Source: an uncultured Methanosarcinales archaeon (GTDB lineage Archaea; Nanobdellota; Nanobdellia; Woesearchaeales; GW2011-AR9). Taken from it: DNA of 64,000 nt. A program made the translations under genes and the position numbers. The notes under the pieces were generated by a model. The model made no database searches. It saw nothing but the letters and a program-made list of their open reading frames with translations, and was not told where the DNA came from. Where the stretch lies: positions 27,579 through 91,578 of the forward strand of contig CAZQLW010000001.1 in the NCBI GenBank assembly GCA_964594395.1, in the 5' to 3' direction. Positions 20,528 to 36,816 of this stretch are shown piece after piece; position 1 is the first letter of the stretch, and every line of letters starts with the position of its first letter.

Positions 20528-20648
20528 AGCAGTATAGAAGGCAAAGAGGTTTATATCTCTTACTAACGAAAGTGCGACAAAAATATCAAAAAGATAGATA
20601 TCATTAAGAAAGGAAATATTTAAATATCCCTCTACTTTACCAGAGGCT

Positions 20649-30920: not shown

Positions 30921-31388
30921 TTAATTAAACGGAACATGCTTTTCGTTTTTTGGATCGTTTTTAATTTTACTTTTTTCACCTTTCTGAATATCTTCTTTAA
31001 TTAATAAAATTTTTGTTTCTACTGCTCGGTCTAAATCTTTCTGAGTTACAAAATTTAATGGACTCCACAAGTCTAAATATTTTTTTAAAGTTTCTACCTC
31101 TTCCATTCCTGCAGTTTTTTTCAACTCTTTAATGATGAGGTCCATTTTTTCTAAGGTTTTTTCATGTTTATGTTTAATTTCTAAAACATCTTCATTAATT
31201 GTTTTAACTTCTTTTGTTAAACTATTTGACCTTTTGATAAAGTCAGTTTTTAATGAATCTACTTCTCTTAAAAGGTTGTTAACTTTACTTTCTAACGCTT
31301 TTACCCAGATGTAAAGTTTAGAGTTGTCAAATCCAGACTTTTCTTCAACTTTTACCGGCTTAGGTTTCCCACCAAGATTTAAGTCCAT
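30921..31388 (-). CDS. coiled-coil protein (hypothetical)
   Basis: 155 aa, heptad-rich. Confidence 0.4.
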   Translation of the reverse strand: MDLNLGGKPKPVKVEEKSGFDNSKLYIWVKALESKVNNLLREVDSLKTDFIKRSNSLTKEVKTINEDVLEIKHKHEKTLEKMDLIIKELKKTAGMEEVETLKKYLDLWSPLNFVTQKDLDRAVETKILLIKEDIQKGEKSKIKNDPKNEKHVPFN

Positions 31389-31466
31389 ATTTACTTAAAT
31401 AAAGAATACAATATAATAAAGTTATGTGAGTACTTCTGAGGAGTATTTGTATTTTGAAGAAGATAA

Positions 31467-31790
31467 ATGTTTATTAACGGAATAAATTTAACCATTAAAA
31501 TGACAAAAGATTACTTAACTGTGATTATTGATTATACAGTAAATGGTCCATTTAAAATTAGTGGAGATTGCAATGATACGGGTAAAATTGAAGTTCTAGA
31601 AACCTTTCTGAGAAACCAAATTGGTGCCGGACCAGACCCCCGTAAACCAGATTATAAAGAAACTTATCAAATCTCTCTTCAATGGCATCCAAGTAATGAT
31701 AAAATTGTAGCTAGCTGTAACACTGGTAATTATGGATTAAGGGATGGAATTCTACAAGATGTTTTGAGAAAAACTTTAAGAGAGACATAA
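31467..31790 (+). CDS. hypothetical protein
   Basis: 107-aa ORF, no motif. Confidence 0.3.
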   Translation: MFINGINLTIKMTKDYLTVIIDYTVNGPFKISGDCNDTGKIEVLETFLRNQIGAGPDPRKPDYKETYQISLQWHPSNDKIVASCNTGNYGLRDGILQDVLRKTLRET

Positions 31791-31807
31791 TCAGAGCAAA
31801 TTACTGC

Positions 31808-31916
31808 CTATATTACATAAATGTCGCACACATTACAAAAATGTAACATCTCTTTAATCAAAACATTTATATACTTATATTACATAAATGTCAGATATGT
31901 TACAAAAATGTAGTAT
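31808..31916 (+). repeat. tandem direct duplication (about 42 nt x2, 66-nt period) of the promoter/5'-end region of the MNT gene
   Basis: CTATATTACATAAATGTCGCACACATTACAAAAATGTAACAT versus CTTATATTACATAAATGTCAGATATGTTACAAAAATGTAGTAT. The second copy contains the MNT start codon. The first copy opens a short 30-codon ORF. Confidence 0.5.
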
Positions 31917-32433
31917 TTTGCAAGTTGCAGGTGTTTTCTTTAATGAGCCGACTAAAGACCATTATTTGACAGAAATCAGCCAGAAAGCTAATCTGGCCCA
32001 TACTGCGGTTAAGAAACATCTTTCAGAACTTAAAAAATTATCTATCATAACAGAACATCATGAAAAAAAAGGCAAAAGAACTTTTCCGATTTACAAAGCA
32101 AACATTAACGATAAAGAATACAAAAAACAAAAGAGAACTTCTAATTTAATCCAGTTACAAGAATCGAAATTAATTGAGTTTCTAAAAGACAATTTAATGC
32201 CAAATTCAATTGTTCTTTTTGGAAGTTATCAAAAAGGAGAAGATATTGAAGATAGTGACATAGATTTATTTATTGAATGTAAAAAAGAAGAAATAAACCT
32301 CAATAAATTTAAAAAGTTACTAAACAGAAACATTCAATTGCATTTTAAAGATAATTTTAAGACATATCCTCAAGATTTAAAGAATAATATTATTAATGGT
32401 TTAATTTTAGTAGGCTATTTGGAGGGTTATTAA
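31888..32433 (+). CDS. minimal nucleotidyltransferase (MNT) with N-terminal wHTH
   Basis: Pol-beta-superfamily NTase motif LFGSYQKGEDIEDSDIDLFIE (GS...DxD) preceded by an HTH-like segment. Confidence 0.7.
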   Translation: MSDMLQKCSILQVAGVFFNEPTKDHYLTEISQKANLAHTAVKKHLSELKKLSIITEHHEKKGKRTFPIYKANINDKEYKKQKRTSNLIQLQESKLIEFLKDNLMPNSIVLFGSYQKGEDIEDSDIDLFIECKKEEINLNKFKKLLNRNIQLHFKDNFKTYPQDLKNNIINGLILVGYLEGY

Positions 32434-32834
32434 TGATTATTAACACGCAACCAGATAAAGCAAAAGCAAAGTCTTTAACTGAGATGGCTAAAATCACATT
32501 AGAACGTTTAAAAGAAACTAATAAAGAAAAATATCCCTCTAATACTTTAACAGATTATTATGATATTATTAGAAAATTAATGGAGGCTTTAAATGCCTTA
32601 GATGGTGTTAAAATAAAAGGGGAAGGGGCACATTTTCAAATAATTGATTATGTTTGTGATAAATACAAACTTCATATTTCTACTAAAGAGTTTATTCAAG
32701 ATTTAAGAGATTATAGGAACAGAATCTCTTACGAGGGATTTAACGTTAAAGATAGTTTTATTGAATCTAATGCCTCTAAGATAGAAAAGATTATTAGTTT
32801 GTTATTAAAATTAATAGATGAAAAAATAAATTAA
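32433..32834 (+). CDS. HEPN-domain protein, partner of MNT
   Basis: All-helical 133-aa ORF immediately downstream with TAATG overlap, in typical HEPN/MNT operon architecture. An R-rich segment (RDYRNRISYEG) sits at the expected position of the HEPN motif, but the conserved His is not evident. Confidence 0.5.
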   Translation: MIINTQPDKAKAKSLTEMAKITLERLKETNKEKYPSNTLTDYYDIIRKLMEALNALDGVKIKGEGAHFQIIDYVCDKYKLHISTKEFIQDLRDYRNRISYEGFNVKDSFIESNASKIEKIISLLLKLIDEKIN

Positions 32835-32849
32835 ACTTTTAAAATAAAA

Positions 32850-35147
32850 ATGATGGTGTTGACAGATAAAAAGTGTTTTGAGTACGAAACTTTCCATGAA
32901 GGAGAGAATAAGATCCTTAAGGTTTCTTTAGAAAAATGTACTTTCCCTCCATCGATTGAGTATAGTGAATTATGTATGGCCAAAATAATCGATGCCTTAT
33001 TAGAAGTTACGGGAGTAACAATCATTACACTTTCACAATTAAGAGAATATGAATACGATTATCCGCAGGTTAAACTTCTTCTTGAACTGGCTTTACTTTA
33101 CAAGAAAATCAATAAAGATGAACGGTACGCTTATTCTGCTTTAGTTACTGACCCTTTACATGAACGGTACATCCGAGGAAGTTATGCAGAATTTCAACGT
33201 ATAATTTCTAAAAGGTTAAAAGAAGATCCGTTCGCAGCTTTTGTTGAACTGAAACGTCTTGAACGGAGAGAAAAAACTAAACTTAACAATCTTATTGATC
33301 AACGGCACGCCACTTCTCAACAAAAGTTTGTTCAAATCATGGTTGACGTTATCCATACAATTGAACAGTTAACAATTATTAAGTTTTTAATGCCGCACAC
33401 TAAAGATTATAAGTTAGGGGAGAGAACAATTTATGGGATAGTTTTACACCCGACAACTAAGCCCGACTTTATGTATACCAAGCTAGTCATCGCTTACCCA
33501 GAAGGTAATTTGAAAGAAAGTTATAATTTCGGGTCTGATAGTGATAAGTGTGAAGTTAACATTTTTGATTTTAATGATAACATTAAAACCCTTTACCATC
33601 TTACTCCGCCAGAATTTAAGTATGACGAAGAAGTGTACGAACTTCTTGATGATGCTAAACGAATCATGTCTGAACATAAGCCAACACGTGAAGAATTTGT
33701 TGACCCTGAACGGATGAGAGAAGTTTTTTTTAACATTGGTAAGGATTTGCTTAACGATTTACTTGAACATAAAAAAATGAAACTTTCTGATGATAAAGTT
33801 GAAGATCTGGCCAGAGCATTATTACGTTACACTGTTGGATTTGGATTAATTGAACTTCTCCTTTCCGATCCGAAAGTTCAGGACGTTAACATTAACGCGC
33901 CTAACGGAGAATTGCCAATTTTTATTGTTCACCAGGATTATGGTGATTGTTACACTAACATTTATCCTACTCGGGAAGAAGTTGATAGTTGGGCAACAAA
34001 ACTGAGATTAATTAGTGGTAGACCTTTAGACGAAGCTAATCCCATCTTGGATACAGAACTTAAAGTTGAAGGGTTCAGTTCAAGGGTTTCAGCAATTACT
34101 GCACCGTTAAGTCCGAACGGTCTTGGATATTCGTTCAGGCGACATAGAGATCACCCTTGGACTTTTCCGTTATATATGCAACCAAAAATCAGGTACATGA
34201 ATGCACTTGGTGCTGGTTTGATAAATTTCCTGATTGATAATAATGCAACTATCCTTGTTGCTGGTACTCGTTCCTCTGGGAAAAGTAGTCTACTTGGCAG
34301 TTTTCTTGTAGAAATGTCCAGGCGGTCAAGGATTATTACAATTGAAGATACTTTTGAACTTCCACAAGAATCGTTACGTATTTTAGGCTATAACATTGAA
34401 TCTTTAAAAGTTGCTTCTGCTTTATCATCTCCGGGAAGTGAAGTTGATCCTTCTATAGGAATTAGAAGTACCCTGCGTTTAGGCGATTCAGCAATTTACG
34501 TGGGTGAAGTTAGAAGTACTGAAGCTATTGCCCTTTTTGAAGCAATGCGGGTCGGTGCTGCTGCAAACGTTGTTGCGGGAACGATTCATGCAGATTCGCC
34601 TTATGGGGTTTATGACCGGGTTGTTAACGATATTGGTGTTCCAAAAACCAGTTTTAAAGCGATTGACATTATTGTTGTTACTAATCCAGTAATTTCGGGA
34701 CTGAAAAAGTATAAACGAATCCTTAAAATTACTGAAGTTAGAAAACTCTGGGATGAAGATCCGTTGAAAGAGAACGCTTTCGTAGATTTAATGGTTTATG
34801 ATCCAAAAACTGACCAGTTGGAAATTACTGACGATTTGATTAACGGCAATTCTGACATCTTGAAACGGATGGCCGGTAAAGTTAAAGAGTTTGCTGGTGA
34901 TTGGGATGCTGTCTGGAATAATATCTTGTTAAGGGGCGACTGTAAAATGGCAGTGGTAGAGTTATTTAACGAGACTAAAGACGAATCTATTTTGGAAGCA
35001 GAGTTTGTTACTAAAGCTAACGATATGTTTCATTTAATTTCTAACCGGATTAGAGAACAAACAGGTAAAATGGATAATAAACGAATCCTGTTTGAGTATA
35101 AAGAATGGTTAAATAAGGAAGTTAAGAAGAAAGACGAGTTTGAGTGA
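32850..35147 (+). CDS. FlaI/VirB11/GspE-family secretion ATPase with long N-terminal extension
   Basis: Walker A VAGTRSSGKSSLLGS followed by IEDTFEL, Asp/His boxes, and FlaI-type N-terminal domain (DPKVQDVNINAPNG). Confidence 0.8.
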   Translation: MMVLTDKKCFEYETFHEGENKILKVSLEKCTFPPSIEYSELCMAKIIDALLEVTGVTIITLSQLREYEYDYPQVKLLLELALLYKKINKDERYAYSALVTDPLHERYIRGSYAEFQRIISKRLKEDPFAAFVELKRLERREKTKLNNLIDQRHATSQQKFVQIMVDVIHTIEQLTIIKFLMPHTKDYKLGERTIYGIVLHPTTKPDFMYTKLVIAYPEGNLKESYNFGSDSDKCEVNIFDFNDNIKTLYHLTPPEFKYDEEVYELLDDAKRIMSEHKPTREEFVDPERMREVFFNIGKDLLNDLLEHKKMKLSDDKVEDLARALLRYTVGFGLIELLLSDPKVQDVNINAPNGELPIFIVHQDYGDCYTNIYPTREEVDSWATKLRLISGRPLDEANPILDTELKVEGFSSRVSAITAPLSPNGLGYSFRRHRDHPWTFPLYMQPKIRYMNALGAGLINFLIDNNATILVAGTRSSGKSSLLGSFLVEMSRRSRIITIEDTFELPQESLRILGYNIESLKVASALSSPGSEVDPSIGIRSTLRLGDSAIYVGEVRSTEAIALFEAMRVGAAANVVAGTIHADSPYGVYDRVVNDIGVPKTSFKAIDIIVVTNPVISGLKKYKRILKITEVRKLWDEDPLKENAFVDLMVYDPKTDQLEITDDLINGNSDILKRMAGKVKEFAGDWDAVWNNILLRGDCKMAVVELFNETKDESILEAEFVTKANDMFHLISNRIREQTGKMDNKRILFEYKEWLNKEVKKKDEFE

Positions 35148-35223: not shown

Positions 35224-36816
35224 ATGGTAGATAAAGGTACTTGTTTAAGGTATTATAAACGTGAAGATGTCCAGAAAGCGATGGTTGAACATGCTCAAAA
35301 TAAAGAGCTTGGTGTTCGTTATGGCGATGGTTTTGGTAAACGGCCAGACGTTTTAATGTATCCTCAGGATGTTTTAGAGTTAGCTAAACAGGGGGTAACT
35401 TCTTTTCATGTTAGTGAAGAAGTTTGGGAAAATCCGTTAATTTTAAACAGTGATATGAACAGAAGAGAACAAGACGAGTTACGTATTGGTTGGGATTTAG
35501 TTCTTGACATTGATTGTCCTGATTGGGAAATATCTAAGTTAACTACCTATTTGTTTATCAAAGCTTTAAAAGAAAATGGGATTAAAGAAATTTCTTGCAA
35601 GTTTTCTGGAAATAAGGGGTTCCATATCGGTGTTCCGTTTGAAGTGTTTCCTAATGAAGTTGTTGGAAAAAAAACAAAAGACATTTTTCCTGAAGGACCA
35701 AAAAAAGTTGCTCAATATTTGTTAAACACTATCACTACTCGTTATGTTCAAGTAAAAGATAACAAAATATTTTTTGATAATGATTATTCTTTTAGTTTAT
35801 CTGAATTGAAAGAAAAGTTTGGTGAACAGCAATTTTTAATTAACCAGTGTGCTAGTTGTCAAAAAGAAATAAAAAAAATTAAAGAAGAAGTGATAGAATT
35901 TATTTGTCCTAAATGTGAGGAGAGGGTAGTTGCTGACCAGGAATTTCTTAAATGTAAAAAATGTAATATCTTGATGAACAAAATGGAACAAACAAAATCT
36001 TTATGTCCCTGCGGTTCAAATGAATACAATTCTATTTTTGACCCTTTATCTATTATTGAAGTTGATACTATTTTAATTTCATCACGTCATTTGTATCGGA
36101 TGCCATACTCGTTACACGAAAAATCTGGATTGGCAAGTTTACCAATAATTCCTAAACAAGTGATGGATTTTGAAAAAAGTATGGCTCACCCTGATAAAAT
36201 TGTAGTTTCTGGAATTAAGTTTCTTGATAGGAACGTTTTGAAAGAATCTGCAAGGATGTTGTTAGTTAACGCTCTTGATTTTGAAGTCAAGATTGAAGAG
36301 GATCGAGATTTTGGTAAAGAAGTTAAGTTTGAAGAACTAAAAATTGAAAGTCCGATTAATGAAGAGTTTTTTCCACCATGTATTAAAAAAGTTCTTGATT
36401 CTGGCTTGGAAGATGGTAAGAAACGGGCAATTTTCATTTTAACAAATTTTCTTGGCAAGATTGGTTGGAACAAGAAAGAGATTGAAAATTATCTTTTAAA
36501 ATGGAACAAAGAAAAGAATTCTGGGAATTTACGTGACAATTATATTGTTAGTCAGATGAAAAGTTTTACTGCTGGTGCAAAATTACCGCCGAACTGTGAT
36601 AATGAAGCTTATTATACGGGAATTGGTATCTGTTTACCTGATACTTTATGTAAAAAAATTAAAAATCCAGTAAATTATACCATTATCAGATGGAAAAGAC
36701 ATTTAAGGGATAGAGAAGAAGATAATCGTCAAAGCAGTAAAAGTAAAACTAAAGAAAATAAAAGTGAAGATAATAAGAATTCTGAAAAAAATAAAAAAGA
36801 AGAAAAATTTGAGTAA
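35224..36816 (+). CDS. priS: DNA primase small subunit PriS fused to a PriL-CTD-like FeS domain
   Basis: PriS catalytic motifs DLVLDIDCPD and SGNKGFHIGVPF, and a Zn-ribbon (CxxC...CxxC). The C-terminal FFPPCIKKVL...PNC...ICLPDTLC resembles the PriL C-terminal 4Fe-4S domain. Confidence 0.75.
   Translation: MVDKGTCLRYYKREDVQKAMVEHAQNKELGVRYGDGFGKRPDVLMYPQDVLELAKQGVTSFHVSEEVWENPLILNSDMNRREQDELRIGWDLVLDIDCPDWEISKLTTYLFIKALKENGIKEISCKFSGNKGFHIGVPFEVFPNEVVGKKTKDIFPEGPKKVAQYLLNTITTRYVQVKDNKIFFDNDYSFSLSELKEKFGEQQFLINQCASCQKEIKKIKEEVIEFICPKCEERVVADQEFLKCKKCNILMNKMEQTKSLCPCGSNEYNSIFDPLSIIEVDTILISSRHLYRMPYSLHEKSGLASLPIIPKQVMDFEKSMAHPDKIVVSGIKFLDRNVLKESARMLLVNALDFEVKIEEDRDFGKEVKFEELKIESPINEEFFPPCIKKVLDSGLEDGKKRAIFILTNFLGKIGWNKKEIENYLLKWNKEKNSGNLRDNYIVSQMKSFTAGAKLPPNCDNEAYYTGIGICLPDTLCKKIKNPVNYTIIRWKRHLRDREEDNRQSSKSKTKENKSEDNKNSEKNKKEEKFE

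Follow-up and report, generated by a model that had tools for sequence, protein, structure and literature searches.

Introduction

Operons in which a minimal nucleotidyltransferase (MNT) gene lies upstream of, and overlaps, a HEPN gene are known from the type VII toxin-antitoxin systems HepT/MntA, such as Shewanella SO_3165/SO_3166 and Aphanizomenon HEPN-MNT, in which the MNT protein transfers AMP to a Tyr that neighbours the active site of HEPN (PMC7641770). The Shewanella MNT antitoxin, SO_3165, binds and represses its own promoter, which contains two palindromes, without having a recognisable DNA-binding domain (PMC4621449). Here we analyse a related operon, together with the direct repeat upstream of it, in a 64-kb stretch of archaeal DNA (contig CAZQLW010000001.1; the whole stretch is referred to as the window). 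It shares with HepT/MntA the GS-x10-DxD motif of the MNT protein and the order and overlap of the two genes. In contrast to the type VII systems, the MNT protein carries a dedicated N-terminal winged helix-turn-helix (wHTH) domain, the promoter is archaeal, predicted to be leaderless and furnished with two or four near-identical putative operators, and the distribution looks vertical within DPANN.

The second protein is of the same type as the AF0298-like HEPN-T proteins (UPF0332; PDB 2hsb; Pfam PF05168), which have kept the Arg of the HEPN motif and lost its His, and in which an alternative His from the insert between helices 2 and 3 could rebuild the active site (Anantharaman et al., 2013; PMC3710099). 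However, the window protein has no significant PF05168 match, and its family has an invariant Tyr at the His position, where HEPN-T proteins often have Asp. The pair as a whole is already catalogued as the PADLOC defence candidate PDC-M05 (M05A nucleotidyltransferase and M05B HEPN), the profiles of which are matched by both adjacent genes, M05B weakly. PDC-M05, with its putative antiviral role, has been reported as archaea-enriched and possibly of archaeal origin, and it is defined only by embedding among defence genes (PMC12988326), whereas the loci studied here lie among housekeeping genes. No description of an operator or promoter architecture for PDC-M05 was found in the literature searched.

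Archaeal repressors of the MDR1, LrpA, Phr and TrmB type bind palindromes that overlap the start site downstream of the TATA box and thereby block recruitment of RNA polymerase. The locus in the window resembles these systems in having palindromes that lie downstream of the TATA box but ahead of the start site, and others just past that site, and in encoding a wHTH of the MarR/ArsR type. It differs from them in that an enzyme domain is joined to the putative regulator, whose control seems to be limited to its own operon, and in that the operator-like sites extend into the first six codons. The literature searched contained no description of a fused wHTH paired with a leaderless promoter-operator conserved at the nucleotide level across a lineage, nor, for such a module, of operators reaching into the first six codons or of recurrent duplication of an operator block. 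These features refine a familiar theme, autoregulation, and do not amount to a new kind of system: as a gene pair the locus is ordinary, and its control region is unusually well conserved.

A conserved pair of palindromes at the start of the operon

The segments 31808-31849 and 31875-31916 of the window are identical at 34 of 42 positions with a period of 67 nt, and the similarity extends to 46 of 62 positions if 31788-31849 is compared with 31855-31916. A repeat search reports 58 nt at 76% identity and a spacing of 67 nt. The direct repeat is real, since 500 dinucleotide-preserving shuffles of 31700-32000 gave at most 29 identities over 42 positions (mean 23.1). Tandem Repeats Finder misses the 67-nt repeat, which is too diverged for it and amounts to fewer than two copies. 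An earlier note on this DNA had described a tandem duplication of 42 nt with a period of 66 nt; the duplication stands, and only the period needed correction.

Comparison with related loci shows which part of the repeat is conserved. Loci were drawn from metagenomes, from species-representative genomes (80 loci, all of them metagenome-assembled genomes (MAGs) of DPANN archaea) and by exact look-up, and the upstream regions of 87 non-identical loci, with MNT identities to the window of 44-100%, were compared. Conservation is almost complete over the 57 nt that surround the start codon, and the DNA further upstream cannot be aligned. The consensus reads aaAaatTTaTAtA(a), followed after 6 nt by TaTTACAnnnnTGTAAtAT and then by ATGTTACAAAAAaGTAGTAT. 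It contains two operator-like sites, A and B (Table 1), which share a 14-bp palindromic motif, TTACA-N4-TGTAA, and are 20 nt apart; 14-mers with at most two mismatches to the motif have a background frequency of 0.0009 per position. What is duplicated in the window, and kept under selection, appears from this comparison to be the pair of 14-bp palindromes.

Site B covers codons 2 to 6 of the MNT gene, where codon usage was compared over 88 genes. At codons 2-5 a single codon is used for each conserved residue (TTA in 79/79, CAA in 82/82, AAA in 74/74 and AGT in 55/55), and among the genes with Ser at codon 6, 92% use AGT. For comparison, the commonest codon accounts for 28-88% at other positions of the MNT gene that have a conserved Leu, Lys, Ser or Ile. 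The use of single codons at the start of the gene therefore reflects a constraint on the nucleic acid and not on the protein.

We also looked for a regulon. No other convincing paired sites were present in the 64-kb window or in approximately 530 kb of related loci (approximately 600 kb in all). The paired sites are private to the promoter of the module and travel with it into every genomic context. The operon thus combines an encoded DNA-binding domain with palindromes that lie over its core promoter and start site, are conserved with it and are restricted to it, as is characteristic of autoregulated operons.

Table 1. Features of the operon and its control region (window coordinates; distances refer to the ATG at 31897).
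Feature	Position	Strand	Description
Upstream repeat copy	31788..31849	+	Starts at the stop codon of a 107-aa ORF; holds sites A' and B'; TATA equivalent decayed to GCAAATTACTGC
Site A'	31813..31826	.	TTACATAAATGTCG; distal operator-like palindrome, 84 nt before ATG
Site B'	31833..31846	.	TTACAAAAATGTAA; perfect TTACA-N4-TGTAA palindrome, 64 nt before ATG
Proximal repeat copy	31855..31916	+	Holds BRE/TATA box, site A, start codon and site B
Archaeal BRE and TATA box	31860..31873	+	AAAACA TTTATATA; consensus conserved in 87 loci
Site A	31880..31893	.	TTACATAAATGTCA; operator-like palindrome between TATA box and start codon; at -17 in 80/87 loci
Site B	31900..31913	.	TTACAAAAATGTAG; operator-like palindrome over codons 2-6; at +3 in 81/87 loci
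wHTH-MNT gene	31897..32433	+	178 aa; GS at 32221-32226, DxD at 32257-32265; probably leaderless; alternative annotated start 31888
GGAGG, Shine-Dalgarno-like	32421..32425	+	7 nt ahead of the HEPN start codon; read directly from the sequence
AF0298-like HEPN-T partner gene	32433..32834	+	133 aa; His67 at 32631-32633, Arg95 at 32715-32717, Tyr100 at 32730-32732

A second, distal pair of sites

The window has four sites, of which A' and B' form a distal pair ahead of the TATA box. Such a pair is found in 19 of the 87 loci (MNT identity 53-100%); its members have a spacing of approximately 20 nt and always precede the TATA box, usually at about -72/-52 and in the clade of the window at -84/-64. 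The same four-site arrangement was seen in loci L104 and L105, which were fetched later. Among close relatives, the distal pair is retained at the same distance as in the window in L007/L008/L024 (92% MNT identity) and L010/L011 (87%), where the substitutions fall between the half-sites and not within them. The pair is not restricted to the strain of the window.

Locus L040 has an upstream block of 40 nt, beginning 77 nt before the MNT start (A' at -74), which is a perfect copy (40/40) of its proximal block, including the ATG. This duplication seems to be very recent and independent of the older one in the clade of the window; duplication of the operator block is thus a recurrent event.

In L023 (positions 1817-1919), and also in L009, an insert of approximately 103 nt with perfect 14-bp terminal inverted repeats (GTACATATTTAGTT ... 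AACTAAATATGTAC) is located between A'/B' and the TATA box. It looks like a miniature inverted-repeat transposable element that landed inside the control region.

Core promoter and start codon

The first T of the TATA box is 31 nt ahead of the ATG at 31897. The window has 16 perfect TTTAWATA boxes ahead of a long open reading frame (ORF); since 8 of them are situated 30-33 nt before the ATG, leaderless transcripts with this spacing seem to be the norm for the organism. Boxes at such a distance start, for example, at 20619, 46266 and 57343 on the forward strand, and there are several on the reverse strand.

The MNT protein most likely starts at 31897 (MLQKCS...), because this position fits the usual TATA spacing and homologues, most of which have 178 aa, begin at the same Met (MLQK). 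A start at 31888 was rejected, as it would place the TATA box only 22 nt away and disagree with the homologues. There is no Shine-Dalgarno sequence (GGAGG) ahead of 31897; the second gene has one, in keeping with its internal place in the operon. The wHTH-MNT gene is therefore annotated here as probably leaderless, with a predicted mRNA start at or next to the ATG. This corrects the start codon in some records, in which the protein is given as 181 or 205 aa.

The earlier note had read the two repeat copies as two promoters, and this part of it is not supported: only the proximal copy has a BRE (transcription factor B recognition element) and TATA box at the 30-33 nt distance typical of the genome. 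Across the 19 loci with a distal pair, a TATA-like box (at most one mismatch) is found ahead of the upstream copy in one and ahead of the proximal copy in 15, and the upstream copy of the window has three mismatches to TTTAWATA. The duplicated block does reach 5' into the TATA-aligned region (TAATCAGAGCAAATTACTGCC compared with TAATCAAAACATTTATATACT), so the original duplication probably included the promoter, and a weak A/T-rich stretch (ATTATTTAAA) is present ahead of A' in L010/L011. A 30-aa ORF opens in the first copy (31821..31913), as had been noted, but its suggested role as an upstream ORF or leader was rejected, because the ORF is not conserved: its counterpart is an ATG followed at once by TAA in L007/L008/L024, the closest relatives, and L010/L011 have no ATG. 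A scan for sigma-70 promoters and terminators gave results at chance level, and its bacterial model does not apply to an archaeon.

The wHTH-MNT protein and its HEPN partner

As the earlier note had proposed, the MNT gene with its N-terminal helix-turn-helix comes first and the HEPN gene second in a bicistronic pair. The ORFs 31888..32433 and 32433..32834 overlap by one base within the sequence TAATG, which also bears out the start-stop overlap. The fold and family assignments of both proteins, discussed below, are made with high confidence.

The first protein matches Pfam NTP_transf_2 and Polbeta with E-values of approximately 1e-9 to 1e-10, and MntA antitoxins weakly. Its wHTH comprises residues 2-68 and is MarR/ArsR-like. 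The catalytic motif GS-x10-DxD (G109-S110-x10-D121-I-D123) is invariant in the family. The PDC-M05A profile of PADLOC (PDLC04368) is matched with an E-value of 1.2e-11 over residues 4-149 (profile positions 9-156 of 201), which includes the wHTH. The library of representative proteins also contains a natural single-chain wHTH-MNT-HEPN fusion of 302 aa (P0220), which suggests a physical complex of MNT and HEPN, and possibly a non-toxic, substrate-binding role for HEPN; such fusions usually mark domesticated, non-toxic HEPN subunits (PMC3710099).

The partner of 133 aa has no meaningful sequence match in direct scans of Pfam, NCBIfam and the PDB. Its predicted structure (mean predicted local distance difference test score, pLDDT, 94.9) is all-helical except for a short hairpin, and is a HEPN-type four-helix up-down bundle with an insert between helices 2 and 3. 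The model superposes on TT1696 and other HEPN toxins, the C-terminal domain of kanamycin nucleotidyltransferase, Csm6, DrrA and MtlR. A profile search of 1.84 billion representative proteins returned 372 clusters of the partner family; 9 of 45 diverse members match the Pfam HEPN family PF05168, and a few match other HEPN families. On the modelled fold and transitive homology, we regard membership of the HEPN superfamily as established. The match to PDC-M05B (PDLC04375) is weak (E 7e-4).

The HEPN identity claimed for the partner thus holds for the fold, but the architecture is not the canonical one that had been assumed. The Rx4-6H RNase motif is absent from the partner, and none of the 45 diverse members has a His at that place. 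Invariant in the family are G58, H67, R95 and Y100, with the motif L-R-x-x-R-N-x-I-x-Y-x-G; Tyr100 stands at the His position (R95-N96-x3-Y100), and the alternative His67 is located in the model where the extra helix that separates helices 2 and 3 begins. The HepT family (DUF86, PF01934) does not match the window protein, and matches only 1 of the 45 members weakly (E 0.012). Compared with the Rx4HxY motif of HepT, the partner sequence RNRISYEG has Tyr in place of the His, and Gly where HepT has the Tyr that is AMPylated. Because the motif of DUF86 is absent, the pair is not HepT/MntA in the strict sense.

A model of autoregulation

We hypothesize that the repeat is a doubled operator for the module's own wHTH, in an autoregulated two-gene module of Woese- and Pacearchaeota-type DPANN archaea, and we consider this interpretation probable. 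A single archaeal promoter (31860-31873) would drive a leaderless bicistronic mRNA with its 5' end at the ATG at 31897 or adjacent to it. Dimers of the wHTH, probably as part of an MNT-HEPN complex like those of known structure, would bind the palindromes, and occupancy of A and B would block recruitment of RNA polymerase at the start site. Where A' and B' are present, upstream of the BRE and TATA box, they may add cooperative binding, and repression may become tighter or steeper. Autoregulation is the simplest account of the data, because a MarR/ArsR-like wHTH is fused to the MNT domain and the palindromes are private to the module, travel with it and occupy the position of archaeal repressor sites.

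With respect to the enzymatic activity, the MNT protein would probably nucleotidylate HEPN near its active site, with the invariant Tyr100 as the obvious candidate. By analogy with type VII systems this is a reasonable guess, since the GS and DxD motifs are intact and Tyr100 is invariant in a motif near Arg95. That the module is a toxin-antitoxin system based on AMPylation is a tentative proposal, which we hold to be somewhat less than evenly likely.

Several observations weigh against the model or parts of it. RNase toxicity is uncertain because the HEPN protein lacks the canonical catalytic His, and the Tyr that is AMPylated in HepT occupies a different position from Tyr100. Site B could be invariant in part because the N-terminal peptide, or the 5' end of a leaderless mRNA, is itself constrained. 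With 47 of the 87 loci lacking any upstream site, the distal pair is dispensable, and its variable distance from the TATA box does not fit a single helical phase. Furthermore, the neighbours of the module in six contexts are housekeeping genes (MCM/TBP/NifU, Sua5/Orc1, pilus ATPase, L21e/Rpb4, CCA enzyme and Elp3/Lon), with no recognisable defence genes near the module in these contexts, and no full-length relative was found in 2.9 million viral contigs of IMG/VR. Within the clade that shares synteny, the identity of the module (75-92%) tracks that of the flanking pilus-type ATPase (76-96%). Because of the housekeeping context, the lack of viral copies and the divergence that follows the ATPase, vertical inheritance fits better than a typical mobile toxin-antitoxin system.

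Alternative explanations

The last-named observations favour an alternative that concerns the genes rather than the repeat. The pair may be no toxin-antitoxin or defence module, but a domesticated, vertically inherited two-subunit nucleotidyltransferase or nucleotide-sensing transcription factor, in which HEPN is a non-toxic subunit with a substrate-binding or regulatory role, comparable to that in kanamycin nucleotidyltransferase. Domestication of MNT-HEPN pairs has been described (Anantharaman et al., PMC3710099), and would agree with the loss of the canonical His, the natural fusion P0220 and the high sequence conservation of the pair, of which one match was retrieved in each of the 80 species-representative genomes (this is not a count of copies). 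On the other hand, an RNase site could be restored in AF0298-like HEPN-T proteins by the alternative His that they have conserved (PMC3710099), and the family studied here has both His67 and Arg95 as invariant residues; the antitoxin-first overlapping operon and its predicted tight self-repression are hallmarks of toxin-antitoxin systems; and the family matches the defence candidate PDC-M05. On balance we think this alternative rather unlikely.

A more far-reaching form of it, which we put forward as speculation and regard as distinctly unlikely, is that the module is a domesticated core regulator of Woese- and Pacearchaeota-type DPANN archaea. A wHTH-nucleotidyltransferase/HEPN complex would then sense a nucleotide or RNA signal or modify an RNA or protein substrate, and the promoter-operator and first six codons would be frozen at the nucleotide level across the lineage, with protein and sites co-evolving as one unit. 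If this is true, the recurrent duplication of the operator block in L040 and in the clade of the window would be an evolvable knob for the repression threshold.

The palindromes could also be genuine cis-elements that are read by another conserved DPANN transcription factor or that act on RNA, as a translation signal or as a target of HEPN or MNT. Site B lies within the transcript, and the invariance of its codons would also suit a signal at the RNA level. However, A, A' and B' are upstream of the predicted start and have the same motif as B. The predicted RNA fold of 31800-31930 is not significant (z -1.73), on which ground an RNA-structure reading was dropped, and no Rfam family matches 31300-33000. 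The paired sites follow the module into every context and occur at no other promoter in the approximately 600 kb surveyed, which is the pattern expected of an autoregulator. An RNA signal or a different reader is therefore improbable.

Equally improbable, in our view, is that the repeat is a functionless product of recent replication slippage, which drift will remove. New duplications do arise, as the perfect copy in L040 demonstrates, and more than half of the loci, as stated above, do without an upstream site. Against neutrality, the distal pair has persisted among relatives at 87-92% protein identity with changes sparing the half-sites, and in each of the 19 loci that have it family-wide it consists of two palindromes with approximately the same spacing on the same side of the TATA box.

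That each copy is a promoter with first codons, giving two tandem promoters, two starts and a 30-aa upstream ORF or leader, is very improbable in view of the decayed TATA equivalent and the unconserved ORF described above.

Genomic neighbourhood and origin of the sequence

The G+C content of the window is approximately 30% and uniform along its length. The closest relatives of its proteins are from DPANN archaea labelled Woesearchaeota, Pacearchaeota and Nanoarchaeota. Many MAG records with the module (L024, L025, L026, L030, L034 and others; third-party annotation assemblies) are titled 'uncultured Methanosarcinales archaeon'. These titles look like placeholders or wrong taxonomy; the informative closest names are Woesearchaeota or Nanoarchaeota.

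Upstream lies an ORF of 107 aa (31467-31790, forward strand), without a match in Pfam or NCBIfam, whose stop codon is exactly the point at which the upstream repeat copy starts. L023/L009 have a homologue (82-83% identity) at the same place. Since the ORF is present there but missing in L007/L008/L024, the closest relatives, as well as in L010-L012 and L005, it appears to be an indel-polymorphic small gene, inserted between a divergent upstream gene and the operator array.

Directly 3' of the module, on the same strand, is a gene for a secretion ATPase of the FlaI/TadA type (765 aa, 32850-35147). Its core matches begin at approximately residue 260-450, and the part N-terminal to the FlaI-type match has no database match. 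The adjacency of ATPase and module is kept only in relatives with at least 75% MNT identity. A protein of 530 aa (35224-36816, forward strand) has NCBIfam matches to the catalytic primase subunit PriS (residues 98-309) and to the regulatory subunit PriL/PriX (residues 375-516), and appears to be a fused archaeal primase.

Implications

The wHTH, the enzyme, the partner and the 57-nt promoter-operator have stayed together across at least 80 species-level DPANN genomes. The putative recognition sequence, TTACA-N4-TGTAA in two or four copies, can be read from the comparative data, and the putative operator dictates codon choice at the start of the gene. Because the module is self-contained in these respects, its regulatory logic is directly testable, in organisms that cannot be cultured alone. 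The family may therefore offer a clean case in which to address the control and the toxicity of archaeal HEPN-T-type modules.

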